DNA from: Chloroflexota bacterium
Lineage (GTDB): Bacteria > Chloroflexota > Dehalococcoidia > UBA2979
Assembly: GCA_002716405.1 (NCBI GenBank)
Contig: PBBA01000004.1
Coordinates: forward strand, 2,482-66,481
Direction of reading: 5' to 3'
Length of the DNA stretch: 64,000 bases
Under the pieces are notes generated by a model that was given only the letters and a program-made list of their open reading frames with translations, was not told the DNA's origin and searched no databases. Shown here in pieces: positions 45,899 to 63,561 of this stretch; position 1 is the first letter of the stretch, and every line of letters starts with the position of its first letter. The position numbers and the translations under genes were made by a program.

Positions 45899-45972
45899 GG
45901 GCCCGTAGCTTAGTGGTAAAGCAGGCGGCTTTTAACCGCTCGATGAGAGTTCGATTCTCTCCGGGCCCACCA
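45899..45972 (+). tRNA. tRNA-Lys (anticodon UUU), CCA encoded
   Basis: Hand-folded cloverleaf. Acceptor stem GGGCCCG/CGGGCCC. D arm GCTT-AGTGGTA-AAGC. Anticodon stem GGCGG/CCGCT with loop CTTTTAA. T arm GAGAG-TTCGATT-CTCTC. Discriminator A followed by CCA. Confidence 0.9.
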
Positions 45973-45989
45973 GTACAAGGAATCACAAT

Positions 45990-47285
45990 TTGCTCTCACT
46001 CTACCGAGACATTCGGACCGGCATCATTGATCAATCTACGGGGAAAATTTTCTACGGCTGGTATATAGCTCTTAGTGGCATTGTAATTATCACAATCGCA
46101 ACTGGATTGATTAATCAAGCTTTTGGAGCATACTTTGTTTTGCTTCAGGCTGACTTTGGTTGGAGTAAAACTTTGCTCTCGTCAGGATATGCATTTGCAC
46201 GTATAGAAAGTGGAGTACTGGGTCCCGTTCAAGGATGGTTGATCGATCGTTACGGTCCAAGAATAATCATGACCATTGGACTACTCATCTATGGGTTAGG
46301 GTTTATCGCATTCAGTCAAATTTCTAGTCCACTCACTTTTATTATCACTTTTGCAATTATGTCAGTCGGATCAAGCTTAGGCGGTTTTATGGCATTACAA
46401 GTTGCAGTTGTAAATTGGTTCAATCGTCGCCGTGCACGTGCTCTTATTTTACTTTCAGTCGGACTATCTATGGCTGGTTTTACTGCGCCAATCGTAGCTA
46501 TCGCTCTAGATTATTTTTCATGGAGAAATGTTGCTATTTGTTCAGGTCTTGTAGTTTTATTTGTAGGACTACCATTAGCACAACTAGTACGCCATCATCC
46601 ACATGAAAAAAATACATATGTCGATGGAATTATCAGTAATGGTGATGATAATTCACCTAACATCACAGAGATTTCACCACACCAGTCAAATGACTTAACT
46701 CCAAGACAAGCTCTCAAAACTCAAGCTTTTTGGTTTATTTCATTAGGCCATGCTGCTGGAGTGTTAGTTGTTAGTGCAATTATGGTTCACATGATTCCGC
46801 ATCTCACGGAAGAATTAGATTACTCTCTAAGTAAAGCTGGTTTAATTACTGCTATCATCCCGTTTGCTATGTTACTAGGAAGGTTTACTGCTTTATTTTT
46901 TGGAGAAAAGTATGACAAAAGAAAAGTAGTTGTTGTCGCAATGCTTGGGCATACGATTGCTTTACTTTTACTTGCTTATGCGCAATCAACATGGATGGTA
47001 ATTTTATTTGCATTAATTATAGGAACTTCTTGGGCAACCAGAGGCCCTCTCACTCAAGCCCTTCGTGCTGACTATTTTGGAACTAAAGCGTTTGGAACGA
47101 TCATGGGATTTTCTTCAATGATAGTGATGCTAGGCTCAATAGCAGGCCCCATTACCGCAGGTATTCTGGCTGATCTCACAGGAGATTACAAATTTGGTTT
47201 TACACTCTTGGCAATCTTAGCTGGCTTAGGATCAGTATTTTTTCTAACAGCCTCTCCACCGAAAACATCCATCCCGCAAAGTTAA
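45990..47285 (+). CDS. MFS transporter (oxalate/formate antiporter-like family)
   Basis: 12-TM pattern. N-terminal FYGWYIA and G.L.DR.GPR loop. The TTG start lies only 18 nt after the tRNA, and there is no ATG before the first TM segment. Confidence 0.75.
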   Translation: MLSLYRDIRTGIIDQSTGKIFYGWYIALSGIVIITIATGLINQAFGAYFVLLQADFGWSKTLLSSGYAFARIESGVLGPVQGWLIDRYGPRIIMTIGLLIYGLGFIAFSQISSPLTFIITFAIMSVGSSLGGFMALQVAVVNWFNRRRARALILLSVGLSMAGFTAPIVAIALDYFSWRNVAICSGLVVLFVGLPLAQLVRHHPHEKNTYVDGIISNGDDNSPNITEISPHQSNDLTPRQALKTQAFWFISLGHAAGVLVVSAIMVHMIPHLTEELDYSLSKAGLITAIIPFAMLLGRFTALFFGEKYDKRKVVVVAMLGHTIALLLLAYAQSTWMVILFALIIGTSWATRGPLTQALRADYFGTKAFGTIMGFSSMIVMLGSIAGPITAGILADLTGDYKFGFTLLAILAGLGSVFFLTASPPKTSIPQS

Positions 47286-47288
47286 TTC

Positions 47289-47867
47289 CTATGATTCTTC
47301 TGGTCGAGCAAAGCCATGAAAACCTTCAGAACCAGGTTCAACGTCAAAGGAACGTAACTGAAAAGCAACCATAGTATAGAATCCTAATAGACTAGACATT
47401 TCTGTGAGCCCACGCTCTCCAAAAAGTCTAATGACCTTACTATACAAGTCATCAGATAATGATTTACCTCCTAACAAGGTCATTGAAAGATCATAGGTTA
47501 CCAGGATATCTTCTCTGTCTGAAACAGGGCGATTCCCTATTTGAACATCGTCTAGTACCGACTGAGGAATCCCATACTCCACAGCACGATCAGCATGTGT
47601 CCACTCAACATTCGATTGCCAATAATACGCAGCAACTGAAATAGCTAATTCTACAATCCCTCGATGAAGCGATGTTTTCTCCCAAAACCATAGCCCAAAT
47701 GTGCGCATTTGGTGACATAATTCAGGGCTACGGAACCATGGATCATAAGGACCACCCCAATAACCAGATTCGGGTACACCTTTATAAAAACGTACTAAGC
47801 TGTCAAATTCTGTTTTAGTGACTTCATCCATAGTATCTGGATCAGGTATCGGACCTAAGCGACTCAT
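47289..47867 (-). CDS. Carboxymuconolactone decarboxylase (AhpD-like) family protein
   Basis: About 190 aa and helical. Collinear with CMD-family proteins (...W..SPEL......G......SL.....ELAI...A..W....EW..H...A...G.........FGERG..E...L.GFY.MVA). Confidence 0.6.
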   Translation of the reverse strand: MSRLGPIPDPDTMDEVTKTEFDSLVRFYKGVPESGYWGGPYDPWFRSPELCHQMRTFGLWFWEKTSLHRGIVELAISVAAYYWQSNVEWTHADRAVEYGIPQSVLDDVQIGNRPVSDREDILVTYDLSMTLLGGKSLSDDLYSKVIRLFGERGLTEMSSLLGFYTMVAFQLRSFDVEPGSEGFHGFARPEES

Positions 47868-47991: not shown

Positions 47992-49074
47992 ATGCCACTC
48001 GAAATTTTTAAAGTATCAGAAGATGATGCAGTTCATGTATCAGATGCATGGCTGTTCGACATTACAAAAAAAATATTTGAGTACGTAGGAGTTCCTTCTG
48101 AAGATGCCTCGCAAGCCGCAGATGTACTTGTCCAGGCTGATCTACGAGGTGTTGATAGTCATGGGGTTTCAAATATGCTTCGTAATTACGTGGCATCTTA
48201 TCAAGAAGGAGCATACAACCCCACTCCTTCTTGGGAAATTGTACGAGAGCGAGCCTCTACTGCAACTATCGAGGCTGATCAAGGACTTGGTATCATTATT
48301 GCACCTAAAGCAATGAAAATAGCTATTCAAAAAGCCAAAAAAACCGGATTCGGTGTTGTCACAATCCGCAACAGTGCTCACATGGGTATGGCTTCTTATC
48401 ATGCCATGCTAGCACTTGAACATGACATGATCGGAGTATCTATGAGTGCAATAGGTTCAGGTGTCTTCCCTACCTTTGGTTCAGAAGGAAGGTTTGGTAC
48501 TAATCCTATTGCTATTGCTGCTCCTGCATTAAATATGCATCCTTTTGTATTTGATATTGCCACTAGTATTGTTGCTGGTAATAAATTAAGACTAGCCAAA
48601 AGATTAGGCACTGTTATGCCGGCAGGCCTTTTTGCAGATGCTGACGGAAATATTGTCGATACTGCAGGACAAGTCCCTGAAATATATAACATGATCCCCA
48701 TTGGCGGAACTCGAGAACATGGATCACATAAAGGGTATGGTTTTGCTCTAATGGTCGAGATACTTTCAACATTGTTATCAGGTGGGATACCATGTACTTT
48801 ACTCGAGACAGGGCGTCCTGCAACTCACCATGTCGCTGCATACGATATCGATGCATTTACTGATGTTCAAGAATTTAAAGAAATGATGGACAAATGGCTT
48901 AAACACCTAGAAGATACACCACCTGCTCCAGGACATGAGAGGGTCCTTACACCCGGCCTAGAAGAAGAAGAGGCCACGATAAAACGTAAAGAAGAAGGCA
49001 TACCACTACACCCAGAGGTAATAGACTGGTTCAAGGTAATCTGTGATGAATTTTCTATTCCGTTTAAGTTATAA
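47992..49074 (+). CDS. Ldh_2-family oxidoreductase (malate/L-lactate/sulfolactate/ureidoglycolate dehydrogenase type 2)
   Basis: ADLRGVDSHGV, R.S.H.G....Y, G.NP.A.A.P and HKGYG.A.MVE are hallmark motifs. Confidence 0.8.
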   Translation: MPLEIFKVSEDDAVHVSDAWLFDITKKIFEYVGVPSEDASQAADVLVQADLRGVDSHGVSNMLRNYVASYQEGAYNPTPSWEIVRERASTATIEADQGLGIIIAPKAMKIAIQKAKKTGFGVVTIRNSAHMGMASYHAMLALEHDMIGVSMSAIGSGVFPTFGSEGRFGTNPIAIAAPALNMHPFVFDIATSIVAGNKLRLAKRLGTVMPAGLFADADGNIVDTAGQVPEIYNMIPIGGTREHGSHKGYGFALMVEILSTLLSGGIPCTLLETGRPATHHVAAYDIDAFTDVQEFKEMMDKWLKHLEDTPPAPGHERVLTPGLEEEEATIKRKEEGIPLHPEVIDWFKVICDEFSIPFKL

Positions 49075-49082
49075 ATCAATAT

Positions 49083-50084
49083 TCATTGAATAACCCAATG
49101 GAGAGGTTCACTTTTACGCCATCGCATCAAGTTTTCAAAAAATCTTTGCGCTGATCTCTCATGATATTTATCAGAGATTGCCGAATTATGTGGAGTTACA
49201 ATTACATTAGGTAGTGTCCAAAGAGGTGAAACTGGTGGCAAAGGTTCTTCTTTAAAAACATCAAGATAGGCACCACCTAGATGTCCCGAAATTAATTTTT
49301 GCGTTAGAGATTCTTCATTAATTACAGGACCACGAGATACATTTATTATTCGGGAACCTTTCGGTAACTTTGACAAACGCTCAGCACTAATCAAACCTTC
49401 AGTTTCATCATTAAGTGGGCAAGAAAGTACTAACCATTCTGCCCTATGTAAAAGATTGTCTAACTCACTATTATCATATATCTCATCGACACCTTCAGGT
49501 ATGTCACTGACATTGCGTCTAATCCCAATCACATGCATCCCAATCGATTTTGCATATCGTGCCACACGTCTCCCTATCTCACCTAAACCAATAATCAACA
49601 ATGTTTGACCACCGATATCAGGAGGTGCGTCATCATAATGAATCGGAGCCCAAACACGCTCGATCTGAGATTCTCTCCAATACTTAAAAGGGCGTCCCAA
49701 CCAAAGTATAGCCGCCAATACATTTAGTGCTATCGGCTCTGCATTGGCACCAGGAGAATTTGTAATTGATATATCTCGATTACTAAGTTGAGGGAAATTT
49801 TTGGGATTTATACCCACAGCAAAAAAATGTAACCATTTTAAGTTTTTTGCACGCGCTAAAGTTTCCAAAAATATATCACGCCTATACCGAATATCATTCG
49901 AAAAAAAAGCAACTTGTACATTACTTAAAATGTCCTCGGGTATTATTTGATCATTATCAACATCAATAATAATGCGAGTTGTTTGTACACCGGGACCTGA
50001 TTCTACTACAGATAATTCCGAATCAAATCTCTCAACAAATTTTTTACTAAGTAGTACACCAAAATCCATTATCTTTTCCTGCAA
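49083..50084 (-). CDS. D-2-hydroxyacid dehydrogenase (NAD-binding), last gene of the selenoprotein operon
   Basis: LLIIGLGEIGRRVARYAKSIGMHVIG Rossmann motif. N.SRGP.I.E..L, YLDVF..EPL and TPH. Confidence 0.8.
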   Translation of the reverse strand: MQEKIMDFGVLLSKKFVERFDSELSVVESGPGVQTTRIIIDVDNDQIIPEDILSNVQVAFFSNDIRYRRDIFLETLARAKNLKWLHFFAVGINPKNFPQLSNRDISITNSPGANAEPIALNVLAAILWLGRPFKYWRESQIERVWAPIHYDDAPPDIGGQTLLIIGLGEIGRRVARYAKSIGMHVIGIRRNVSDIPEGVDEIYDNSELDNLLHRAEWLVLSCPLNDETEGLISAERLSKLPKGSRIINVSRGPVINEESLTQKLISGHLGGAYLDVFKEEPLPPVSPLWTLPNVIVTPHNSAISDKYHERSAQRFFENLMRWRKSEPLHWVIQ

Positions 50085-50096
50085 TATATAACCATA

Positions 50097-51179
50097 TTAA
50101 AATGAAACAATTGGGCGAGTTATAGCTTTCTCAGTAGCCCCCCATGTTGGAACAAAAGTAGCTTTAATACCCACCCCACCTGTAACGATAATAAGTATAT
50201 CTTCAGGTGATATTGCAGAAAATATATGCTCTGATTCTGCAATACCAAGTTCAATACGATTAGCTGTTATTCGAGAAACAGCGTGTGGAGACAACCAAGA
50301 TAAAGGCGTTTTTGATTCATCATACAAAGCTTCTTGAAATCTTTCTCGATCCCAGCCTTGTTCAGAAAGGAATTGTGCAGCTTCAGGGGGAAGAAGAATT
50401 GCAGGTTGACCTCCACCAAAAGATTGCCTTCCCAAATTACCTGCGATGAGCATCGATCGAGACATAGTACGCACCAAATCTTCAGCTGTGGTCTGTGGAA
50501 GTACAACTTCCACACTCCCAACACCTGCTATGACTGTCACCGTACTCTCATCAAGTTTAAATCCTCTTGTAGTATGAAAAGGTGGCCACACACTACCTTC
50601 TTCATTTTCTGCGATTAACCAAGTATATTTACCAGAATGACCATGTGTTGCCATATCACCACTACCGGGAATAGCAAAGGCGATGTTTTGTAAAGCCAAA
50701 CGAATTGCTCGCCCTATAGTTGCATTTGGTTTCGATCCTTGCCCGAGAACATTATGAGAGTTGTTAATACGGAGTTCGTTAATTATTGGACCATTGAGAG
50801 TGATTAGTGGTGCGGCAGCTCCCGTGGTCGTTTGAATGCCGAGAAGATTGAACTCAGGATCTGTCATAGCGTCTAAAGCTGAGGCAATTAATGGAACAAC
50901 TCCAAGATCACAGCCAGCCAAAACTGCACATGCAGCAATATCTCTTAAGTTTGGAATCACAAAGCCTGGGGGAAGTGGCATTTGAGTCGCAGATAATGTT
51001 GGATCCAAACTACCCAGCATTTGGTCAATTTTTTCAGCAGTAGGTGCAATTACAGGTAAACCGTCTGTAAGTCCAGCATTATAAAGTACTATATTAGCAC
51101 TATCTGCACTTGTGAATTCATCTTCAAGGTCAACTAATCGTTCACAGATAGGACGGATATCTAACGGTGGAGTTGTCAT
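50097..51179 (-). CDS. Uncharacterised conserved protein, paralog B of a tandem pair
   Basis: Shares ordered motifs with 51193-52269: TDGLP(V/I), AGC, EFNL.GIQ.TT, LNGPI, G.G...N.TIGRA.RLAL.NI, PG.GD.ATHG, AENE and GG.G......PT.G. No family recognised. Confidence 0.6.
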   Translation of the reverse strand: MTTPPLDIRPICERLVDLEDEFTSADSANIVLYNAGLTDGLPVIAPTAEKIDQMLGSLDPTLSATQMPLPPGFVIPNLRDIAACAVLAGCDLGVVPLIASALDAMTDPEFNLLGIQTTTGAAAPLITLNGPIINELRINNSHNVLGQGSKPNATIGRAIRLALQNIAFAIPGSGDMATHGHSGKYTWLIAENEEGSVWPPFHTTRGFKLDESTVTVIAGVGSVEVVLPQTTAEDLVRTMSRSMLIAGNLGRQSFGGGQPAILLPPEAAQFLSEQGWDRERFQEALYDESKTPLSWLSPHAVSRITANRIELGIAESEHIFSAISPEDILIIVTGGVGIKATFVPTWGATEKAITRPIVSF

Positions 51180-51192
51180 CAGTAACGTCTAG

Positions 51193-52269
51193 TCAGGAGA
51201 AAATAGAACGAACAGGATCACCATTTGCCGTCTCTATTCTACGTGAAACGGTATCAGTACCTCCAAATGTAGGTAACCAACATGAATGTTTACCTGGTCC
51301 CCCAGCTACTATTACATCAATATCATTCCAAGTTTCAGCGACACGAAAACCTTCTGGATGTACTGCACCAGCCGTGCCGCTTCTTCCTCCGTCTAACCAA
51401 TCTTGAGCTTGATCGCTAAATTTGAGTATCGTATTTTCCCAAACAAACTTTTTCACATCGTCTTTAGAATAACCATCGTGAGCTATTTGCTCAGCATGCT
51501 CAGGACCAAAAATTATCATTGGTTCACCTCGACCGCCGATATTATTACTACCAGACTGTCTTAATGATGTGGTCACTGTAGTTAAAAGGCCCTTACCACT
51601 AATGCTTCCATGATCATTAATGTTATGTGGAGCTTCACAAGCTAACACCGTAACAACATTATCATCCTTAGCAAATCCATTTTCCACATGAAGTGGTTCC
51701 CAAGGGTTTGCGGTTTCGTTTTCTGCAGTACAAAAAGAAATTTTTGCTGGTGTACCGTGGGTAGCACGGTCACCATCACCAGGAGTGCCTCCTCCTATGT
51801 TAAGAAGTGCCAAACGTACAGCACGTCCTATTGTCATATTAGATCTAGTGCCTTGTCCAAAACAGTTCGGGCCACTGTTTATCCCTATTTCTTGTGCGAT
51901 TGGACCATTCAAAAGTACAAACACTGCACAAGGGTGTGTAGTAGATTGGATACCATTTAAATTAAATTCATCTTCAGCAACGGCTTGCAATGCAGCAATT
52001 ACAACAGGGAAATATTCTGGACGACACCCTGCCATCACCGCATTCGTGGCAATCCGTTCCAGAGTTGCTTCACCGTTGCGTGGACCCAAAGTTGCGATTA
52101 CATCATCGTTACTCCAATCAACGTACTGACAAATTTCTTCAACACGTGAGCGAGTCGGTGGCACAATGGGTAAACCATCAGTCCATCCTTGTGTTTCAAA
52201 AAAGTCTTGCACAGCTTCTAATGAATCTTCTAGTTCAACAATTGGTGGCAGATCAAGATTAACTGACAT
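51193..52269 (-). CDS. Uncharacterised conserved protein, paralog A of a tandem pair
   Basis: See 50097-51179. A GAGGAA RBS lies 4 nt upstream of the ATG. 13-nt gap to paralog B. Confidence 0.6.
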   Translation of the reverse strand: MSVNLDLPPIVELEDSLEAVQDFFETQGWTDGLPIVPPTRSRVEEICQYVDWSNDDVIATLGPRNGEATLERIATNAVMAGCRPEYFPVVIAALQAVAEDEFNLNGIQSTTHPCAVFVLLNGPIAQEIGINSGPNCFGQGTRSNMTIGRAVRLALLNIGGGTPGDGDRATHGTPAKISFCTAENETANPWEPLHVENGFAKDDNVVTVLACEAPHNINDHGSISGKGLLTTVTTSLRQSGSNNIGGRGEPMIIFGPEHAEQIAHDGYSKDDVKKFVWENTILKFSDQAQDWLDGGRSGTAGAVHPEGFRVAETWNDIDVIVAGGPGKHSCWLPTFGGTDTVSRRIETANGDPVRSIFS

Positions 52270-52333
52270 ATTTCCTCACACACAACTAAGCCCTCTGGGC
52301 AATATATAAACAAAAAGGGTGCAAATTTATAAG

Positions 52334-52855
52334 CTAATCAGCACCCATTAAGCTACTTACTGAAGAAGCAGCATCTGGAACTTTTTTCAACACTTCTTCA
52401 GGATCGATACCTCCAAGCGGATGTTCGATAGTGATAATCCGTAAATCAGGAAAACCCATAGCACGAGCCTGGAGGTGTGCTAACTGAATAAAAGCACTAG
52501 TAGCTAAAGTAACTGTTGGAGTTCCTCTTTTTTCAAGTTCTACTGAAGCGTGGATACTCCACGCTGTGCAAGAACCTCAATCAGCACTCCCAACCATTAC
52601 CCAGTCATTTTCAGCAGCCAACTCGTCAAGTATCGCTGGGTCAGCGGGAGTTGAAACTGGCTTGTGACGAGTCATGGAGTGAATTACTCCATATCGCTGA
52701 CCTAATTCTTCGGCAATAGAAGTCATCACAAGTTCTGCATGTTGTTTCCCATTTTCCAGAACACCAACTATCGATTCCCTTATTTCAGGAAAATCTTCTA
52801 GTTCACCTACAGCTGCAGGTTCTGGAGCAGTAGGGTTATGTAATTCAATAACCAT
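52334..52855 (-). CDS. Predicted selenoprotein with UGSC motif (in-frame UGA = Sec at 52577-52579), 173 aa
   Basis: The track ORF 52577-52885 ends at TGA. The same frame continues ...VMVGSAD-U-GSCTAWSIHASVELEKRGTPTVTLATSAFIQLAHLQARAMGFPDLRIITIEHPLGGIDPEEV... for 80 codons to TAG 52334-52336. A hairpin lies immediately 3' of the TGA. Start taken as ATG 52855, which has AAGGAG 6 nt upstream; the track start was TTG 52885. Confidence 0.75.
52536..52576 (-). promoter_or_regulatory. Candidate bacterial SECIS hairpin directly downstream of the UGA
   Basis: Read on the minus strand: lower stem GGUUCU/AGAACU (6 bp, one G-U), a 5x5 internal loop, a perfect 8-bp upper stem AGCGUGGA/UCCACGCU, and apical loop GUA about 20 nt after the UGA. 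Confidence 0.6.
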
Positions 52856-52917
52856 GTCATTCTCCTTAACGTTACTTGTATCCAAACATAAACCGAAAAA
52901 CTTCTCAAGTATTTATC

Positions 52918-53802
52918 TTAAATACCTATTAAGTTTTCTGGATTTTTACATACCATTTGATGTACTTGATCAGCGTCAAAGCCTACTTCTAAAAGGCATT
53001 CAATCCACATACCCATCCCTAGAGGTGGTGACGGATTATTGATCTGTCCCAAGTCAGTTGAGGCGATAATTTGCTCAACACCAACTGCTTTAATTTGTTC
53101 AGCAATAGATCGTACTGACTCACCATCATCATTCCGAAATGCAGCTAACCCACAGTGTTCAATATATACACCAAGACCTGCAAGTTCTTGTTGAACTTCG
53201 ACAGGAATACCAAATGAAGCATGAGTTATGACACTACGTATTCCACGCTCACGAGCTATTCGCAACAACACCAAAGTTTCTTGAGGTGAAATATGACCAC
53301 TGGCTAAAACAGCATCGTGACTAGCTATTTCATCTAAAATATCATGGCATTCAGGTAACAATTCACCCGCATCATTAAGAATTGGAATACCAGCACCCTT
53401 ACTAAAAAAATTACCACCTCGATCGCGATAAGCTGCTGAATCAAAAGTAGGCATCCAAATTACTGTTGCACCAATAGCAAGAGAGACTGCAACTGCGTCA
53501 GGATTCAAGCCTCCAACTCCCCAATCAAGAGCTACGCTACCATAGACATCTATACCATCAAATTCCGTATCAAGTGCCCAAGCAATAGGTTGTGTCGCAT
53601 AATCATGACTCTTCAGGACCAACCCACCCATCCCAGCTTCGATCGCTGAAACAACTAGTTCACGAGAGTCGGTCCGCCTTTCTGTATAGGGATCTGGAGC
53701 AGCATGAACATGCATATCTATCGCACCGCGTATAATATCCTTTACCTCAGGTCTTAATTCATCTAAGTTCGTTGCTTGTAAAGCTGAAAAAGTCATTTGC
53801 AC
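52918..53802 (-). CDS. Amidohydrolase-fold metal-dependent hydrolase (DUF6282-like by recollection), first gene of the selenoprotein operon
   Basis: N-terminal metal motif IDMHVHAAPD, then GMGGLVLKSH. Further His/Asp positions (ASGH, ITHASF, STDLGQ) are spaced as in TIM-barrel amidohydrolases. Confidence 0.6.
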   Translation of the reverse strand: MQMTFSALQATNLDELRPEVKDIIRGAIDMHVHAAPDPYTERRTDSRELVVSAIEAGMGGLVLKSHDYATQPIAWALDTEFDGIDVYGSVALDWGVGGLNPDAVAVSLAIGATVIWMPTFDSAAYRDRGGNFFSKGAGIPILNDAGELLPECHDILDEIASHDAVLASGHISPQETLVLLRIARERGIRSVITHASFGIPVEVQQELAGLGVYIEHCGLAAFRNDDGESVRSIAEQIKAVGVEQIIASTDLGQINNPSPPLGMGMWIECLLEVGFDADQVHQMVCKNPENLIGI

Positions 53803-53897: not shown

Positions 53898-55079
53898 ATG
53901 AGAAGAACATTAAATATTTTTTTTGTTGCCCTGAAATTAGGCTTTATTTCCTTTGGTGGTCCTGTAGCTCATCTCGGATATTTTCGTGAAACATATGTAC
54001 AAAATTTAGAGTGGCTTGACGATACAACATTCGCAAAGTTGGTTGCTTTATGCCAAATATTACCTGGGCCAGCAAGTAGCCAAGTCGGAATGGCAATTGG
54101 AGCCTTGCGTGGAGGTGTATGGGGAGGATTATTTTCATGGGCCGGATTCACATTACCCTCTGCCGTAGTATTAATATTTTTCGGATTTGCTATAGATAGC
54201 TTTAATTTACAAGATAGTGGGTGGATGGTAGGTTTAAAAATCGCAGCAGCAGCAGTAGTCGCCAATGCATTATGGGGAATGTCTCGCTCATTAACACCAG
54301 ATAGAGCACGTATTACAATAGCGATAATTGCTGCGATTTTATTGCTTTACGAAAGAACAATTATTACACAAATACTTATTCTTGTTGCTGGAGCAGTTAT
54401 TGGATGGAGATTAAAACTATCACCAATTAGTAATTTTAAACCTACTCAAAATCTTCATTGGAAACTAAACAAAATAATCGCTATCAGTTCGATAGTGATA
54501 TTCTTTTTATTGTTGATACTTTTGCCGATTTTGAGAGAATTTTATACTTCACAATACACATCTTTATTCGACAGTTTTTATAGAACTGGCTCTCTAGTTT
54601 TTGGAGGAGGTCATGTTGTATTGCCTTTACTTGAATCAGAGGTGGTCTCATCAGGTTGGTTAAGTAAAGATGAATTCATTGCAGGTTATGGAGTTGCTCA
54701 GGCCATTCCAGGACCTTTGTTCACATTTGCTGCATATATAGGAACAGTGGCAAATATTGAACCAAATGGATTAAGCGGTGCACTTATAGCATTATCTGCT
54801 ATTTATTTACCTTCTTTTTTATTATTAGCTGCTGTTTTACCGTTTTGGCAACAATTTACAATGAACCACAAATTAGAAGCTGCCTATGCAGGGATGAATG
54901 CTGCAGTTATCGGACTTTTGGTGGCGGCTTTTTATAATCCAATATGGACACATACAATCACAACTGCTTCATATTTTTCATTATGGTTAATTGCAACAAC
55001 ACTATTAATGGTTTGGAAAACCCCACCATGGATAGTAGTTTTACTTTCTGCCGTAGGTGGATACGTTTTAGAATTATAA
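53898..55079 (+). CDS. chrA: Chromate transporter (CHR family, ChrA-like)
   Basis: Duplicated CHR domain with FGGP.AH.GYF and a second-half FGGGHVVLPLL. Multi-TM protein. Confidence 0.8.
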   Translation: MRRTLNIFFVALKLGFISFGGPVAHLGYFRETYVQNLEWLDDTTFAKLVALCQILPGPASSQVGMAIGALRGGVWGGLFSWAGFTLPSAVVLIFFGFAIDSFNLQDSGWMVGLKIAAAAVVANALWGMSRSLTPDRARITIAIIAAILLLYERTIITQILILVAGAVIGWRLKLSPISNFKPTQNLHWKLNKIIAISSIVIFFLLLILLPILREFYTSQYTSLFDSFYRTGSLVFGGGHVVLPLLESEVVSSGWLSKDEFIAGYGVAQAIPGPLFTFAAYIGTVANIEPNGLSGALIALSAIYLPSFLLLAAVLPFWQQFTMNHKLEAAYAGMNAAVIGLLVAAFYNPIWTHTITTASYFSLWLIATTLLMVWKTPPWIVVLLSAVGGYVLEL

Positions 55080-55086
55080 CAAACTT

Positions 55087-56331
55087 CTACCAAGCTGCTT
55101 CCATTAAATCAATCGCACCTTGGAGTGCTTGATCTGCATCTCTTAAACCTGAATTGAAATTGAACACTTTGATAGTCTCTTTTGCAATTTCAGGAAAGTC
55201 TTCTTTGGGAATATTTAACTCACTAATTCGAGTTGGCATTCCCACTTTTTTATACAAGTCTTCTATGCCATCAGCGATTGCCAATTTAGCGTCTTCAGCA
55301 GACATACCTGTAGCCCATACATCCATAGCTTGAGCAACCCTACGTGCTGTTTCTAAATCAGGAGCAGGGCTTCTTCGTGCGACTGTGGCTGTAAGGACTG
55401 AAGTAGATTCACCTTGCCAGACATGTGGGTAACGAATGTGTAAAGCAGTAGATATGGCATAGTTCCCTGAAAATGCCTGAGTAGCAGGATTTTGACGACC
55501 TCTGACCTGTTCACCATCATCTTGGACTCTATTACCTAAAAGAGCTGCGACGCATAAATCCATACGTGGCCCAATATCGTCAGGGTTTTCATAAATCCCC
55601 AGGTAACCTCTTTTCAGTAAACGAAGAATATGTTCTTTGTCTCCTTCGACTAAGGGATTAGAGGGAACTGCAACAGCAGCAACTGAACCAGCAAACCCTG
55701 TAGTCGCAGTAGATCTAAATAGTTCATAGGGAGAATCCAATATCGACTCGTGATCAAAGATCAAACCGATTGGGCGGGTTTTTGGATCAAAGTACTCCAT
55801 ACGTTGGTCAAGATCGGGATTAGCTAATCCCGAACCTCCGCGATTCATAGCACCTGTCGGCGTCGTTATAACATTAATAATAGGTAGCTTTGGGGCATTT
55901 AGCCGTGGACTATAAGCAGGTTTACCTTCAGGATACTGAGTCATAATTTCAAAAGGATCGCCTTCTTCACAAAGAAAAATATCAATTACACGTGTTGCAA
56001 CAATCACACTGCCACCGCCAACTGATATCAATAAATCTGCACCTGCTTCCCTGGCAGCTTCAGTCGCTGCCATAACTGAATTGTATGTTGAATCTATTTC
56101 GATACCATCAAAATACCCTGCGAAAGAATCTCCGAGTGCTCCCTTAATACGCTCAATATTTCTTGTTTTACTGGAAATTGACTTAGAACAAATTACAAAA
56201 GGTCTTTTCGCACCTGCTCTAATTACTAATTCCTTCAAACGATCTTCTATAGCTTCTTCTCCGGCAAATAAACGCCAATCAAATCCTCGTGCAGCAAAAG
56301 AATTAATATCGCCCATATAAAGACCTTTCAA
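55087..56331 (-). CDS. Iron-containing alcohol dehydrogenase family protein
   Basis: ..VGGGSVI..A and I..I.TT.TGA are Fe-ADH fold motifs. Paralog of the partial gene at 63562-64000. Confidence 0.7.
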   Translation of the reverse strand: MKGLYMGDINSFAARGFDWRLFAGEEAIEDRLKELVIRAGAKRPFVICSKSISSKTRNIERIKGALGDSFAGYFDGIEIDSTYNSVMAATEAAREAGADLLISVGGGSVIVATRVIDIFLCEEGDPFEIMTQYPEGKPAYSPRLNAPKLPIINVITTPTGAMNRGGSGLANPDLDQRMEYFDPKTRPIGLIFDHESILDSPYELFRSTATTGFAGSVAAVAVPSNPLVEGDKEHILRLLKRGYLGIYENPDDIGPRMDLCVAALLGNRVQDDGEQVRGRQNPATQAFSGNYAISTALHIRYPHVWQGESTSVLTATVARRSPAPDLETARRVAQAMDVWATGMSAEDAKLAIADGIEDLYKKVGMPTRISELNIPKEDFPEIAKETIKVFNFNSGLRDADQALQGAIDLMEAAW

Positions 56332-56364
56332 ATATCGCTCTCAATAGATCCATAGTTAGTATTA

Positions 56365-57654
56365 CTATCCTGATCCAATAACACCAGACTGAATCAATTT
56401 CTCCACATGTTCAGGATCGATGCCGTGCTCGATCAATACTTCTGCACTATCTGCACCTAAAACTGGTGCATGCCTTTGTATAATCGTAGGAGTTTCGGAC
56501 ATTGTTGCTACAGGACCAACAACTTTTTGAGGACCAGTAATTGGATGGATAAGATCTTGCATGATTCCCAATGCAACTACTTGAGGATCTTCTGACATTT
56601 CCTCAGGTATATTCACTGGGGCACATGGCACGCCTGCCGCTTCAAGTTCCACAATCCATTCATCAATAGGTTTAGTCAAAATTATTTCAGCAACTCTATT
56701 TCTTAAATCTTGAGCTGCGACTATGCTAGCCGGATCGTTGGCATCAAATTCAGGATCATCGCTATGATCGTCTGTTATCCCAAGCACTTTTCTTGCAGAT
56801 TGGCGTGTCGCAGGTGTCAAAGCTCCTAATACTAGAAAACGGCCATCTGCCGTCTGATAACCACCATAGTAAGATCGAAAATGCGCTCGCATACCACGAC
56901 CTTTAGCACGAGCAGCTAATATTTCTGGGTACGAAGCTTTATTATCACGTAAGAGTGATATTTCTTCCATCATCCCATCACGTGTTACAGCATCGTGCAC
57001 AGGTTCACGCATTACATTGGTGTCTTGAATTGCCAAACCTGCACGTAACAATGAAGTTTCGATTTTTTGACCTTCGCCGGTTTTTTCTCTATGTAAAAGA
57101 GCGGCATTAATAGAAGTAGCAGCAGAAAATCCTGCACAATAATCTGCGATTGAAGAACTAGTCACACCAATAGGCAAGCCGTTTTCATCAACCTTAGCTT
57201 CGCCAACCATTAAACCTGTATATGCTACACCAACAACATCTGTTCCTGCGCGATTCTTTAGCGGTCCCTCCGATCCGAAACCAGTAATTTCGCAGTAAAT
57301 TAACTTTTCATTCAATTTCTTTAACGATTCGTAATCAATACCTAAGCGTTCTGCTACACCAACACGAAAATTAATTAACACCACGTCATAATCAGGAATA
57401 ATTTGATAAATCAAATCTCGACCATCAGGGGATTGTAAATCAACAACTAAACTACGTTTTCCACGATTAAGGGATTGCCAACGTTTCCCTAACCCTGGTA
57501 TTACAGCACCGGCATTACGATGTGGATCGCCTTTTGGGCCTTCTACCTTAACTACATCTGCACCTTGATCTGACAAGATACAACCACAAAAAGGGGCAGC
57601 AACAATTTGAGTAAATTCCAAAACACGAATGCCTCGAAGAGGACCTGCAGCCAT
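56365..57654 (-). CDS. Family III CoA-transferase (CaiB/BaiF type)
   Basis: N-terminus GPL.GIRVLEFTQIVAAPFCG..L.D.GADV.KVE. and the downstream D....N.RK.S. pattern. Confidence 0.85.
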   Translation of the reverse strand: MAAGPLRGIRVLEFTQIVAAPFCGCILSDQGADVVKVEGPKGDPHRNAGAVIPGLGKRWQSLNRGKRSLVVDLQSPDGRDLIYQIIPDYDVVLINFRVGVAERLGIDYESLKKLNEKLIYCEITGFGSEGPLKNRAGTDVVGVAYTGLMVGEAKVDENGLPIGVTSSSIADYCAGFSAATSINAALLHREKTGEGQKIETSLLRAGLAIQDTNVMREPVHDAVTRDGMMEEISLLRDNKASYPEILAARAKGRGMRAHFRSYYGGYQTADGRFLVLGALTPATRQSARKVLGITDDHSDDPEFDANDPASIVAAQDLRNRVAEIILTKPIDEWIVELEAAGVPCAPVNIPEEMSEDPQVVALGIMQDLIHPITGPQKVVGPVATMSETPTIIQRHAPVLGADSAEVLIEHGIDPEHVEKLIQSGVIGSG

Positions 57655-57706
57655 AATTACCTCACTACACCTTAGAGAAACCCAACTTAACTCTAAGATA
57701 TATAAA

Positions 57707-58564
57707 CTAAGTACCTGTAAAGGTTGGGTCTCGTCGTTCCATCAGTGCAGCTTTTGCCTCTTTAGCATCATTAGAAACATTTAATACATGAGCAGCATTT
57801 GATGTCAGTACTGCAGCTGTTTCTAAATTACTATCAACTGCTGCACGCAAATTCCTTTTGTTAATCCATTGTGTAATTGGTGGATGTTTAATCATTCGTG
57901 CACAAAGGTCACGTACTTCCGATTCTAGATCTTCAGCAGGCACTAATTTATTTAATACTCCCCATTGATATGCCCTCTCAGCATCTAAATGGCCCGTGTA
58001 AGCAAATTCAAGTGCACGCCCAAGGCCTGCCAATTTCGTTAAATGATACGCTCCACCATTTTCAATGATCTGACCAACTTGGTGATAGGAAATATACCGC
58101 ATGTGCTCAGAGCCATAACGAATGTCACAAGCAAGTGACAGGTCCATACCAAATCCTGCAGCTACACCATTGATCATTGCAATAGTAGGTTTACGTATAT
58201 AATTGACGTCTTTGATTAGCTTAGTCACTCCATAAAGGAAGCTTTCACGAGTTTGGTCAGGGCTATCAGGATGCTTGACAGATCCGAGGAACGGGCCCCC
58301 TCCATCATATCCTTCAACTCCACGAACATCCACGCCAGCAGAAAAAGCTCGACCTACGCCTGTCAAAACGATAACGCGAACATCAGGATCGTCATCACCT
58401 GCACGCATATATTCGCCAACTTTTGCTAATGTACCAAATCTTTCAGATTCACCAATGCATGCATTCAATCTCTCTGGTCGGTTGAATTTAATCCACAAAA
58501 TTCCATTATCTTCTTTTTCATATAGCAAATAAGGAACTAAATCTAAAGCGTGATCGGACATCAA
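57707..58564 (-). CDS. Enoyl-CoA hydratase/isomerase family protein
   Basis: I.FNRPERLNA, LTGVGRAFSAGVD and INGVAAGFGMDL.L.CD. C-terminal AKEAKAALMERRDP.F. Confidence 0.85.
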   Translation of the reverse strand: MMSDHALDLVPYLLYEKEDNGILWIKFNRPERLNACIGESERFGTLAKVGEYMRAGDDDPDVRVIVLTGVGRAFSAGVDVRGVEGYDGGGPFLGSVKHPDSPDQTRESFLYGVTKLIKDVNYIRKPTIAMINGVAAGFGMDLSLACDIRYGSEHMRYISYHQVGQIIENGGAYHLTKLAGLGRALEFAYTGHLDAERAYQWGVLNKLVPAEDLESEVRDLCARMIKHPPITQWINKRNLRAAVDSNLETAAVLTSNAAHVLNVSNDAKEAKAALMERRDPTFTGT

Positions 58565-58623
58565 AACCCTCTCTTTCTATGCGCAATAAAACGACAATAT
58601 ATCAACACCAAATCCTAAAATAT

Positions 58624-59760
58624 TTACTCATCATCCAACTGCAACGTAGGCATTAATTTTGCTAGTTGCCTACGGTGATAGCGTGGTTCGCCTAAAGCAT
58701 GGAACAACGAACGAGATTGCCTAGTGTATAACGTTAATCCATATTCACGAACCACCCCTGTACCTGCATGAACTTCATGACCATAATCACATGCATGCCG
58801 ATAACCATCACTGGTTACTGCCTTGGCAAGGTGAATAGCAGCCTCAGTTTGACGTCCAGTATCCATCTTCCACAATGCTTCGTAAGTGGTCCAACGTGCA
58901 GAATCCAAATGAATAACCAATTGGACTATATGATTTTGAACAAATTGGAATCGACCTATTGGACGCCCAAACTGTACTCGATCACGACTATACTGCACTG
59001 ATAGGTCGAATACAGCCTGTGCTCCACCAACTTTGTATGCACACAACAACGGAGTTGCGCGCATTAGTGCTACATGTAATCCTTCAGCAACTGCATTAAC
59101 TTCACCCAATAAAGCTGATTTAGGAACGCGCGCATTCTCAAATGTCACAGAACTTTCTGAAGATGTAAAACCTTCTAATTTCCGTGCTGATACACCTGGA
59201 ATACTGGTGTCGACCAACAATAAGCTAATATCGTTGTCATCTGAACCAGTACGAATAGCTGTAATTATTAAATCAGCGGCATGGCCATCATAAACAAATG
59301 ATTTTTCACCGTTTAATATATAATCATCACCTTCTTCATTAGGAGCTAATTGCACACCGGCATTTCCCCATTGGTAGTCTGGCTCAGCCATGGCTAATGT
59401 GGCAATTAGTGATCCATTCGCAATTCTAGTTAAATAATTCTCTTTTTGGGCATCATCACCCAATTCTTTTATAATTTCACCTGCAAGAACTGTTGAGAAA
59501 AATGGTCCTGGAACTGGTCCTTTACCCAAAGCTTCAAATACAACCCCTGCGTCTGTATAACCAGTATTACTGCCACCATATTCTTCAGGAATCAGCATAC
59601 CAAGCCAACCAAGCTCCCCGGCAGTACGCCACATTTCATCTGAAAAACCACGCTCAGTTTGTTGTAATTCAATTAATGTTTCTATCGGAGCATCACGACT
59701 AACAAAGTCATCAACTGCCTGTTTTAACATTTCTTGTTGGTCAGTTAAAGAAAGATCCAT
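58624..59760 (-). CDS. Acyl-CoA dehydrogenase
   Basis: Three-domain ACAD pattern: E.GW.G...PEEYGG, a beta-domain, then the C-terminus Y...R.QFGRPIG.FQ. Confidence 0.85.
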   Translation of the reverse strand: MDLSLTDQQEMLKQAVDDFVSRDAPIETLIELQQTERGFSDEMWRTAGELGWLGMLIPEEYGGSNTGYTDAGVVFEALGKGPVPGPFFSTVLAGEIIKELGDDAQKENYLTRIANGSLIATLAMAEPDYQWGNAGVQLAPNEEGDDYILNGEKSFVYDGHAADLIITAIRTGSDDNDISLLLVDTSIPGVSARKLEGFTSSESSVTFENARVPKSALLGEVNAVAEGLHVALMRATPLLCAYKVGGAQAVFDLSVQYSRDRVQFGRPIGRFQFVQNHIVQLVIHLDSARWTTYEALWKMDTGRQTEAAIHLAKAVTSDGYRHACDYGHEVHAGTGVVREYGLTLYTRQSRSLFHALGEPRYHRRQLAKLMPTLQLDDE

Positions 59761-59842
59761 TTTCTACCCCCCGTTTGAGAAAACACTCCCTCTGCATCAA
59801 GAAGATATAGGGGAGATTTCTAATTTAAAAAATAATAGATTT

Positions 59843-61066
59843 CTATTCGACAGTCTTACCTGCTTTATAACGTTCAGCTTCAGAACGACCCATACCAATT
59901 CGTCTAGCCATTAATACTTTCTGAACATCTGCAGTACCACCAGGGTGAAGTGCAACAATCGCACTTCGTTGGTAAGCATCAAGTGCACCTTCAGAGAAAT
60001 CTGTAATTTCATCATTAGTCAGGGCATATGGACCAAAGAGCTCATGCAAAGCAGTAGTAATATCCAAACCTGAAAGCTTTCGGAAATAAGAAGACTGAGG
60101 TCCTTCATACGTCATAGATTGATGAGTTCTATTCATCCAGAAATTTCGGATTCCAAATAATCTCTGAATTTCGGTCTTTTCATATATTTCGACCAATCGA
60201 TCTTGAGCATCAGAATCTTCAACTAAAGGCCTACCATTCAATTGACGTGCTCGAGCCCATTCTAGTGCACGGGAGAACCAAAGGTTACGAGAAACTGAAC
60301 CACCGGCACCGTGCTCAAGTTCGAGGTGTGTAGTTGCAACTTGCCACCCATTATTTTCTCCACCAACTAAGCGCTCAGCTGGAACTCGAACATTGTCAAA
60401 GTAAACGGTGTTTTTGACACCAGATCCGACACCTTCACCTCCGTCTCCTAATAAATCCATAGGACGGATAGTAATACCAGGAAGATCGGCAGGTATCATA
60501 AACCAACTCAAATTCTTATGTCGTTCGCCTTCGGGATCCGTTCGTGTAAGAGTCCAAAGCATATCAACACCATTTGAACCGCCTACATAAATCTTCTCAC
60601 CATTTACAATATAATCATCACCATCACGTACAGCGTCTGTTTGTGTACCAGCAAGGTCCGATCCTGCTTCTGGACCAGTTAAAAGTTGCCAAGTAACAAC
60701 ATCACCCTTGAATATAGGAGGAAGAAGTGATTGTTTCTGTTCGTCAGAACCCCAAACTAGTATTGAGGCGCCACCAAGCCAACCACCTGAATCATAGTAA
60801 GGAGGAATCGAAAGGTCACGTCGACTCATTTCTTCATAGAGCACGACAGTTTCTTCAAATCCCATACCTCCACCACCGTATTCAACTGGTGCAGTAGGGC
60901 GTAACCATCCTCTTTGTCCTAAATCACGCCCTAATTGACGAAATTTAGCATAGTTTTCCGGAGAATCTTGATCCCCTTCAATAACTGGAGCATGATCATC
61001 CAGCCAACTTCGAACTTCTTTTCGAAAAGCCTCCTGTTCAGGAGTATATGATGGTGCAAAATCCAT
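59843..61066 (-). CDS. Acyl-CoA dehydrogenase
   Basis: ACAD pattern: P.EYGG.G, TGPEAGSDL, G.K.Y.. I prefer ATG 61066 (MDFAPSYTPEQEAFR, GAGGA RBS). The track start at 61171 adds 35 non-homologous residues. Confidence 0.85.
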   Translation of the reverse strand: MDFAPSYTPEQEAFRKEVRSWLDDHAPVIEGDQDSPENYAKFRQLGRDLGQRGWLRPTAPVEYGGGGMGFEETVVLYEEMSRRDLSIPPYYDSGGWLGGASILVWGSDEQKQSLLPPIFKGDVVTWQLLTGPEAGSDLAGTQTDAVRDGDDYIVNGEKIYVGGSNGVDMLWTLTRTDPEGERHKNLSWFMIPADLPGITIRPMDLLGDGGEGVGSGVKNTVYFDNVRVPAERLVGGENNGWQVATTHLELEHGAGGSVSRNLWFSRALEWARARQLNGRPLVEDSDAQDRLVEIYEKTEIQRLFGIRNFWMNRTHQSMTYEGPQSSYFRKLSGLDITTALHELFGPYALTNDEITDFSEGALDAYQRSAIVALHPGGTADVQKVLMARRIGMGRSEAERYKAGKTVE

Positions 61067-61192
61067 AATTCCTCGATTCTTAACACTATTCGGTATAAAC
61101 AGCTCGTTAAATACGAGCTTGGTGATCCGACTACGAACTGCTATTACAGCTATTTCAGGGCTGTTTGTCAACTCATTTAATACAAACTTTGA

Positions 61193-63526: not shown

Positions 63527-63561
63527 ATTGTAGAAAGTAGTGATAATGGTACGGAGTAAAA

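Follow-up and report, generated by a model that had tools for sequence, protein, structure and literature searches.

The 64,000-nt window analysed here, from the genome of a Chloroflexota bacterium (Dehalococcoidia, SAR202-like; contig PBBA01000004.1), contains a block of five minus-strand genes (49083-53802). Read 5' to 3', these encode a DUF6282-family protein, a selenoprotein of the UGSC family, two paralogous proteins designated A and B, and a protein of the D-2-hydroxyacid dehydrogenase family (Table 1); the intergenic gaps are 60, 64, 13 and 12 nt. UGSC ranks among the most abundant selenoprotein families of the sea. An earlier note on this DNA took the five genes together as a candidate selenium-dependent system. 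Its gene order matches the window, as do the strand and the last three gaps; the first gap, given there as 62, depends on the start codon chosen and is 60 here. One way to understand such a block is as a single dedicated pathway; another is to locate the conserved function in a smaller part of it. The comparisons described below support the second perspective, in which UGSC and A, not all five genes, appear to be the conserved and functionally linked unit.

The UGSC gene begins with an ATG at 52857, with AAGGAG ahead of it, and ends with a TAG at 52334-52336. An in-frame TGA lies within the motif SAD-U-GSCT, so that the product carries the selenocysteine (Sec) pair Sec-x-x-Cys as U93-G-S-C96. 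The protein scores 135.4 bits against PF24696 (cut-off 25) over residues 7-169 of 172, which passes the family threshold; against the NCBIfam equivalog NF041046 it scores 121.2 bits, slightly below the cut-off of 125. Family-conserved sequence resumes in frame 3' of the TGA, and in more than 90 related loci a TGA splits the UGSC profile exactly at position 98. Sec and Cys alternate at this place: 44 UGSC copies are of the Sec type and 41 of the Cys type, with Cys sitting in the Sec column.

A hairpin resembling a selenocysteine insertion sequence (SECIS) begins at the UGA. Its minimum free energy is -21.6 kcal/mol (z -3.2; matched by none of 200 shuffled sequences), and its apical stem, AGCGUGGA/UCCACGCU, carries a GUA loop about 20 nt 3' of the UGA. 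At the same codon positions, the mean local hairpin energy is -13.2 kcal/mol in 91 distinct Sec-type sequences and -7.5 in 46 Cys-type sequences, which have GC contents of 0.62 and 0.65, respectively (Mann-Whitney p 1.6e-16). The window UGA is a selenocysteine codon. The earlier assignment of this gene to the UGSC selenoproteins is borne out by the profile match and by the U/C-G-S-C motif with its in-frame UGA and hairpin; motif, hairpin and marine Chloroflexota origin are all shared with the family (PF24696/NF041046).

The partner of UGSC is remarkably constant. A UGSC alignment used as query, with one genome taken per species, returned 80 loci, and an A-family gene adjoins UGSC in every one of them. 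When metagenomes were scanned with A-family motifs, UGSC adjoined A in 78 of 80 loci (39-57% identity to window A); both exceptions lie at contig edges. After collapsing loci with A proteins at least 90% identical and adding records from cultured organisms, the pair is found in 134 of 138 non-redundant loci, and it spans Chloroflexota, Actinomycetota, Alpha-, Beta- and Gammaproteobacteria, Bacillota and haloarchaea. Two layouts occur: UGSC-A-B in Dehalococcoidia and some Acidimicrobiales, always with a Sec-type UGSC; and A-UGSC in other Actinomycetota and elsewhere, with either the Sec or the Cys type.

The two proteins are also frequently fused. Among the best 150 A-family representatives, 54 carry a UGSC domain, in either domain order: 14 are full Cys-type UGSC-A proteins, 37 start just past the Sec codon of a UGSC-A arrangement, and three are A-UGSC proteins ending at the Sec codon. 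The same 150 include three A-A tandems and one fusion of A to a thioredoxin-reductase-like flavoprotein. The AlphaFold2 (AF2) model of one natural fusion, P0158, has a mean predicted local distance difference test (pLDDT) score of 93.6 and a predicted template-modelling (pTM) score of 0.93 despite a disordered linker, which implies that the two domains are predicted with confidence to pack as one unit. Near-obligate adjacency and the occurrence of fusions in both orders argue strongly for a physical UGSC-A complex.

Some contigs hold two UGSC-A modules close together (L092, 6444-11019; L141; L151; L119); in L092 the two are convergent, with a 2-Hacid_dh gene between them. Such pairs suggest that modules were duplicated and then diverged in specificity. 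On plasmid pBEN of Paracoccus versutus (NZ_CP038196.1; L176, 5378-6969), a Sec-type UGSC with TGA at the motif is followed by A, and the annotation table for that record lists no gene in the stretch.

A and B, which the earlier note rightly called uncharacterised paralogs, share 34% identity (E 5e-58). Their family, the A family, is a large one, with 5200 clusters (at 50% identity) recovered at E<=1e-3 and 1356 at E<=1e-30, and it has no counterpart in the domain databases: 97 members compared with Pfam and NCBIfam at E<=5 yielded no recurrent family, and searches of PDB sequences with A, as a single protein and as a family profile, gave nothing meaningful. The AF2 model of A is confident (pLDDT 94.4, pTM 0.93); compared with the PDB by Foldseek, it has no match at E<=1e-3. 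Across 164 representatives with less than 60% mutual identity, D31, G32, G81, G122, R149, E183 and G323 are invariant, and only two cysteines are conserved, C82 (94%) and C180 (88%). C82 lies between two predicted helices. Conserved polar residues of the pocket are D31, T110/T111, R149, D167, K176 and E183.

The cysteines distinguish A from B. Both are present in 166 of 180 UGSC-adjacent A copies; C180 is missing from 18 of 27 second (B) copies, among them window B, which keeps C82 and has Leu at 180. A heteromeric A/B pair, as the earlier note proposed, is plausible because B copies typically lack C180, and B is probably a non-catalytic or asymmetric partner. A-family copies in loci lacking UGSC retain both cysteines, and a dedicated UGSC is apparently not needed for A to work. 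Since the cysteines are kept in the absence of UGSC, kept in fusions whose UGSC motif has decayed and lost in B, A is favoured as the catalytic subunit.

Two loci in which A has both cysteines and no UGSC lies nearby deserve description. In L007 (5996-12391), A stands by Amidohydro_2, 2-Hacid_dh and Ldh_2 genes; in Haladaptatus halobius (L180), its neighbours encode DUF6282, a CoA-transferase and a CoA ester lyase.

The most informative partner of the pair, overlooked in the earlier note, is thioredoxin reductase with thioredoxin. Genes for thioredoxin-reductase-like proteins with a CATC or CAAC motif immediately follow B in 11 Acidimicrobiales loci (among L012-L025), in the slot that in Dehalococcoidia holds the 2-hydroxyacid dehydrogenase gene. 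In L001 such a gene lies ahead of UGSC. The association extends to cultured organisms: trxB-trxA-A-UGSC, an all-Cys operon, in Arthrobacter sp. ERGS1:01 (NZ_CP012477.1, 130715-133889); A-UGSC-trxB in Roseovarius sp. THAF8; trxB in one gene string with A and its UGSC-like neighbour in Variovorax sp. SRS16; and, after A, a 303-aa thioredoxin-reductase-like oxidoreductase in Haloterrigena turkmenica.

One can then suppose that UGSC and A form a two-protein (seleno)thiol redox enzyme, fed by the thioredoxin system and acting as a reductase in organic-acid catabolism; we hold this to be somewhat better than an even proposition. Electrons would pass from NADPH to a thioredoxin-reductase-type flavoprotein, sometimes by way of thioredoxin, then to the Se-S bond of UGSC and on to A. 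UGSC would bind A and present its Sec-x-x-Cys (Cys-x-x-Cys in many relatives) at a helix start; A would bind a carboxylic-acid substrate and reduce it by two electrons, using its cysteine pair and a pocket suited to carboxylates; B would be a degenerate paralog, minus C180, that pairs with A, probably as a non-catalytic subunit. In the window the cassette would be co-transcribed with the DUF6282 and D-2-hydroxyacid dehydrogenase genes, and would draw electrons from the housekeeping thioredoxin system, since there is no reductase gene in the window. Its task would probably be one reductive step for an imported organic acid, as Ldh_2, major facilitator superfamily (MFS), CoA-transferase, hydratase and acyl-CoA dehydrogenase genes adjoin it.

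The same logic, NADPH to TrxB to a dithiol carrier to a Cys-pair enzyme, is found in NrdH with class Ib ribonucleotide reductase, in thioredoxin-coupled ArsC, in MsrA and in 3'-phosphoadenosine-5'-phosphosulfate (PAPS) reductase. The likeness would be one of logic only. The UGSC carrier, as modelled, is not a thioredoxin fold and is often fused to its enzyme, A; dedicated trxB and trxA copies stand within UGSC-A operons.

Several observations weigh against a thioredoxin-fed reductase. A thioredoxin-reductase gene was looked for in the 64-kb window and none was found; among the sampled loci, only about 14 of 127 have one in the cassette. Some fusions lack the U/CxxC motif and still keep A's cysteines, so that in part of the family UGSC may play a structural role. 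Sampling covered the loci with the highest similarity to window A (33-57% identity) within a family of 5200 clusters. Finally, the accessory genes are heterogeneous, and the substrate may therefore differ between lineages. A broader proposition goes further: UGSC with A might constitute an unrecognised, globally abundant class of Sec- or Cys-dependent reductases in Bacteria and Archaea, driven by thioredoxin, with a catalytic subunit that has no clear relative in the PDB, and forming an aerobic counterpart, not of the Stickland type, to the glycine and proline reductases. We put this forward tentatively, as an idea with clearly less than an even chance of holding.

A second perspective supposes that the five genes make up one dedicated pathway: the DUF6282 protein would open or deacylate a substrate, UGSC with A and B would reduce or cleave it, and the dehydrogenase would interconvert a 2-oxo and a 2-hydroxy acid. 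This was the reading of the earlier note, and we consider it rather unlikely, although the likeliest of the alternatives. The arrangement is more than chance, because the same order recurs in three other loci. Two are near-identical metagenome-assembled genomes (L009, L010) of Dehalococcoidia/Chloroflexota, from Station ALOHA and another marine sample, with UGSC 98-99% identical to that of the window; the third is a high-GC Dehalococcoidia chromosome (L011) that keeps the order and the tight spacing at 50-76% amino-acid identity and a very different GC content. No terminator-like site was found on the minus strand between the five genes; the promoter and terminator scan was itself uninformative, with counts at or below shuffle expectation.

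Individual components of the five also turn up with the pair in distant lineages. The window DUF6282 protein, amidohydrolase-fold in the earlier note, matches its family over the full length (194.6 bits, cut-off 26.8) and has an HxH motif (DMHVHA); homologs of 32-37% identity, bearing the same name in the PGAP annotation, occur in UGSC/A loci of three haloarchaeal genera, Natrinema, Haladaptatus and Halorientalis. The Natrinema cassette reads UGSC-A-DUF6282-NAD(P)-binding protein-MFS, and in Halorientalis the DUF6282 gene is within the same gene string as UGSC and A. A soil contig (L092) has Amidohydro_2, Ldh_2, UGSC-A and 2-Hacid_dh; Amidohydro_2, 2-Hacid_dh and Ldh_2 are likewise together in L007, and Amidohydro_2 with Iso_dh in L091. 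Because accessory genes recur in lineages as distant as Natrinema, Halorientalis and that of L092, the five genes may belong to one shared pathway in the window lineage.

Census figures speak for a smaller core. Neighbours within 5 kb of the module were scored by targeted tblastn and hidden Markov model panels in a non-redundant set of 127 loci; many contigs are short, so the counts are lower bounds. A second A-family gene was found in 26, a short-chain dehydrogenase/reductase in 26, an amidohydrolase-fold gene (DUF6282 or Amidohydro_2) in 15, a thioredoxin-reductase-like gene in 14, 2-Hacid_dh in 8 and Ldh_2 in 5. Genes for short-chain dehydrogenases and thioredoxin-reductase-like proteins are thus as frequent as the pathway's own enzymes or more so, the neighbours of most UGSC-A pairs are quite different from those in the window, and the order of steps is not derivable from sequence. 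The complete five-gene order is confined to Dehalococcoidia among the sampled loci, and a dehydrogenase directly after B is conserved in L009-L011 only, with homologs near the module in L007 and L092 among others. Hydrolase and 2-hydroxyacid dehydrogenase are lineage-variable accessory genes, not core. Of the earlier reading as one system, then, the part that concerns UGSC and A is supported, and the part that concerns the two enzymes is not supported as stated; when the synteny on which that claim was to be judged is examined, A is near-obligate, and B and the hydrolase are not.

Elsewhere the cassettes keep similar company with different members. TRAP, tripartite tricarboxylate transporter (TTT) or ABC carriers take the place of the MFS transporter, and regulators of the LysR, GntR and IclR types lie near. 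Ldh_2 genes occur near A or UGSC in L007, L092, L105 and L129. The 138 non-redundant loci include 15 with a family III CoA-transferase, 13 with an acyl-CoA dehydrogenase and 7 with an enoyl-CoA hydratase, and CoA-transferase genes are also present in the Roseovarius, Halalkalicoccus, Halorientalis and Haladaptatus loci. Transporters for organic acids or peptides and the regulators, taken with NAD(P) dehydrogenases, amidohydrolase-fold enzymes, CoA-transferases and hydratases or lyases, point to a setting in carboxylic-acid catabolism.

A third perspective draws on the Stickland reductases. Here UGSC would be a miniature selenoprotein B: a substrate held by A would be attacked at its alpha-carbon by the selenolate, a C-N or other C-X bond would be cleaved, the Cys would resolve the selenoether, and A would play the part of PrdA or GrdE. 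Selenoprotein B (GrdB, GrdF, GrdH or PrdB) works beside a larger partner without selenium (GrdE, GrdG, GrdI or PrdA), as UGSC stands beside A. Glycine reductase (Grd) takes its reducing power from the thioredoxin system, and the two-component layout with a thioredoxin association follows the same Grd/Prd logic. Below threshold, 12 of 15 UGSC members match the GrdB model TIGR01917 (best E 4.4e-5), with similar matches to GrdF in 10, TIGR01918 in 9, GrdH in 7 and PrdB in 1; in the window protein, residues 79-148, U93 included, align with model positions 333-397 of 431. Sec-x-x-Cys is common to UGSC and selenoprotein B, including the UxxC of PrdB (PMC2398784 Table 2; PMC1088965).

The scores, however, are far under the cut-offs (17 bits for the window protein against 602.2 for TIGR01917); UGSC stays below the profile thresholds of the selenoprotein B family (TIGR01917, TIGR01918, TIGR04483, PF07355), no Pfam match to PF07355 (GRDB) was obtained with UGSC members, and UGSC has about 170 residues against 240-440. 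A resembles no Pfam or NCBIfam model, the GrdE and PrdA pyruvoyl proproteins included; it gives no sign of self-cleavage, and its C82 is placed between two predicted helices. The genes grdA, grdC and grdD, which belong to Grd systems, are absent from the window neighbours (DUF6282, dehydrogenases, transporters and CoA-pathway enzymes). Grd and Prd are found in amino-acid fermenters; UGSC is carried mainly by aerobic bacteria from sea and soil and by haloarchaea. The GrdB resemblance is a lead to remote kinship, not to family membership, and Stickland-type cleavage is in our judgement unlikely.

What fold UGSC has bears on several of these perspectives. PDB sequence searches with UGSC, as a single protein and as a family profile, gave nothing meaningful. 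In the AF2 model of P0158, the UGSC part is an alternating beta-alpha domain, for which Foldseek finds lumazine synthase, PurE, flavodoxin and the alpha/beta domain of glycoside hydrolase family 3 (GH3) enzymes in the PDB. UGSC thus models as flavodoxin-like, in a fusion homolog rather than in the window protein itself. A thioredoxin fold was considered and set aside, as the modelled domain matches flavodoxin-like folds instead.

In a fourth perspective A would be a hydro-lyase with a distant likeness to class I fumarate hydratase or aconitase X, and the two cysteines of A, with the Cys and the Sec (or Cys) of UGSC, would ligate a metal or an iron-sulfur cluster where the proteins meet; thioredoxin would then serve for repair or regulation. 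Conserved thiol and selenol ligands number four in total, and the top PDB matches of the A model are Leishmania class I fumarate hydratases (Foldseek E 0.011-0.03, prob 0.57). The superposition does not bear this out: the template-modelling (TM) score is 0.28 with a root-mean-square deviation of 16 A, and hhalign against E. coli FumA returns a probability of 0.1%. Class I fumarate hydratase has three cluster-ligating cysteines, and A has only two conserved ones; A as a member of that class was therefore rejected on fold as well as on ligands. Sec/Cys interchange in the UxxC motif and dedicated trxB and trxA genes are, moreover, typical of dithiol redox chemistry, and we regard an interface metal site as quite improbable. 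One observation on its side comes from Vibrio europaeus (L177, 5374-7059) and Sporomusa termitida (L178, 5323-7047), where UGSC-like/A fusions of 561 and 574 aa, with a very divergent UGSC-like N-terminal domain (E about 4e-4), adjoin genes for aconitase X and DUF126.

That UGSC is a general antioxidant or redox sensor, with A merely its target or chaperone and no dedicated metabolic reaction, is very improbable: the UxxC motif is common to many redoxins and UGSC has been grouped with thioredoxin-like redox proteins (PMC2398784; PMC13188914), but UGSC nearly always adjoins a single specific family and is often fused to it, its modelled fold is flavodoxin-like rather than thioredoxin-like, and its loci are catabolic, with transporters and substrate-responsive LysR, GntR and IclR regulators.

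The proposed thioredoxin-fed UGSC-A enzyme should be set against what was already known, namely the UGSC family itself, which is catalogued. It was described in the GOS (Global Ocean Sampling) selenoproteome by Zhang and Gladyshev in 2008 as a stand-alone redox protein, likely thioredoxin-like (PMC2398784). The same paper shows UGSC fused to an uncharacterised domain, 'Unknown_1' (Figure S1A), the sole prior hint of a partner and possibly of the A family. The function of UGSC is given as unknown in PMC1976440 and in a 2026 review (PMC13188914). Where the literature has a stand-alone thioredoxin-like protein, the present analysis has a flavodoxin-like model, paired with A and often beside thioredoxin-reductase genes. 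The UGSC-A pairing, its link with thioredoxin, the flavodoxin-like model and the asymmetry between A and B were found in no published report; searches on 'DUF6282' and 'UGSC family' found no papers. No described system of this composition was found, in agreement with the earlier note.

On the favoured reading UGSC-A is a thioredoxin-linked Sec/Cys reductase, and there is a real chance that A, its catalytic partner, defines a new enzyme class. If so, a selenoprotein family that ranks among the most abundant in the ocean would gain a biochemical role, and selenium availability could bear on how SAR202-type Chloroflexota and marine Actinomycetota catabolise organic acids. A specific partner family, and thioredoxin genes in many cassettes, make the question of UGSC function approachable by experiment. 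One might begin with cultured, tractable carriers: Arthrobacter sp. ERGS1:01, Roseovarius sp. THAF8, Variovorax sp. SRS16, Paracoccus versutus or several haloarchaea. The A family, with its 5200 clusters and its absence from Pfam and NCBIfam, merits a database model.

Table 1. Features of the UGSC-A block and its surroundings in the window
Feature	Position	Strand	Basis
DUF6282-family protein, 294 aa	52918..53802	-	Pfam PF19799, E 1.9e-57
UGSC-family selenoprotein gene, 172 codons + stop	52334..52857	-	Pfam PF24696, E 3e-39
In-frame UGA (Sec), residue 93	52577..52579	-	Frame and family conservation
SECIS-like hairpin, begins at UGA	52532..52580	-	Folding against shuffles
Paralog A, 358 aa	51193..52269	-	No Pfam/NCBIfam match
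Paralog B, 360 aa	50097..51179	-	34% identity to A
D-isomer-specific 2-hydroxyacid dehydrogenase family protein, 333 aa	49083..50084	-	PF02826 (2-Hacid_dh_C), E 4.3e-49
Ldh_2-family dehydrogenase, convergent with operon	47992..49074	+	PF02615, E 1.4e-99
192-aa open reading frame between MFS and Ldh_2 genes	47289..47867	-	No family match
MFS transporter	45990..47285	+	PF07690, E 6.5e-45
tRNA-Lys (UUU), just upstream of MFS gene	45899..45972	+	
Chromate-transporter-family gene, divergent from DUF6282 gene	53898..55079	+	TIGR00937, E 4.6e-100
Catabolic gene run, including an iron-containing alcohol dehydrogenase (Fe-ADH)	55087..61171	-	Pfam
Family III CoA-transferase	56365..57654	-	Pfam
Enoyl-CoA hydratase	57707..58564	-	Pfam
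Two acyl-CoA dehydrogenases	58624..61171	-	Pfam

The remaining features concern the surroundings of the block. The window 2-hydroxyacid dehydrogenase is above threshold for both PF02826 (166.7 bits) and PF00389 (29 bits), and its best NCBIfam equivalog reaches 205 bits against a cut-off of 400; the best NCBIfam matches of the Ldh_2 protein are also under their cut-offs. The convergent Ldh_2 gene and the MFS transporter were correctly recognised in the earlier note; its CMD/AhpD-like label for the 192-aa open reading frame is not upheld, as no Pfam or NCBIfam match was found at E<=0.01. That reading frame is conserved in L009 and L010 only, at 93-94% identity. The chromate-transporter gene is kept beside the operon in the same two genomes and is absent from that place in L011. 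A tRNA was the sole match in an Rfam scan of the window; at this tRNA-Lys (UUU), housekeeping genes (riboflavin synthesis, signal peptidase) give way to the catabolic block. Another Fe-ADH-like gene, beginning at 63553, extends past the window end. In other genomes of Methylomirabilota type, a gene for LMWPc (low-molecular-weight phosphatase/arsenate-reductase type), another thiol-redox enzyme family within a UGSC cassette, lies directly upstream of UGSC (L004, 6989-7480; L104).

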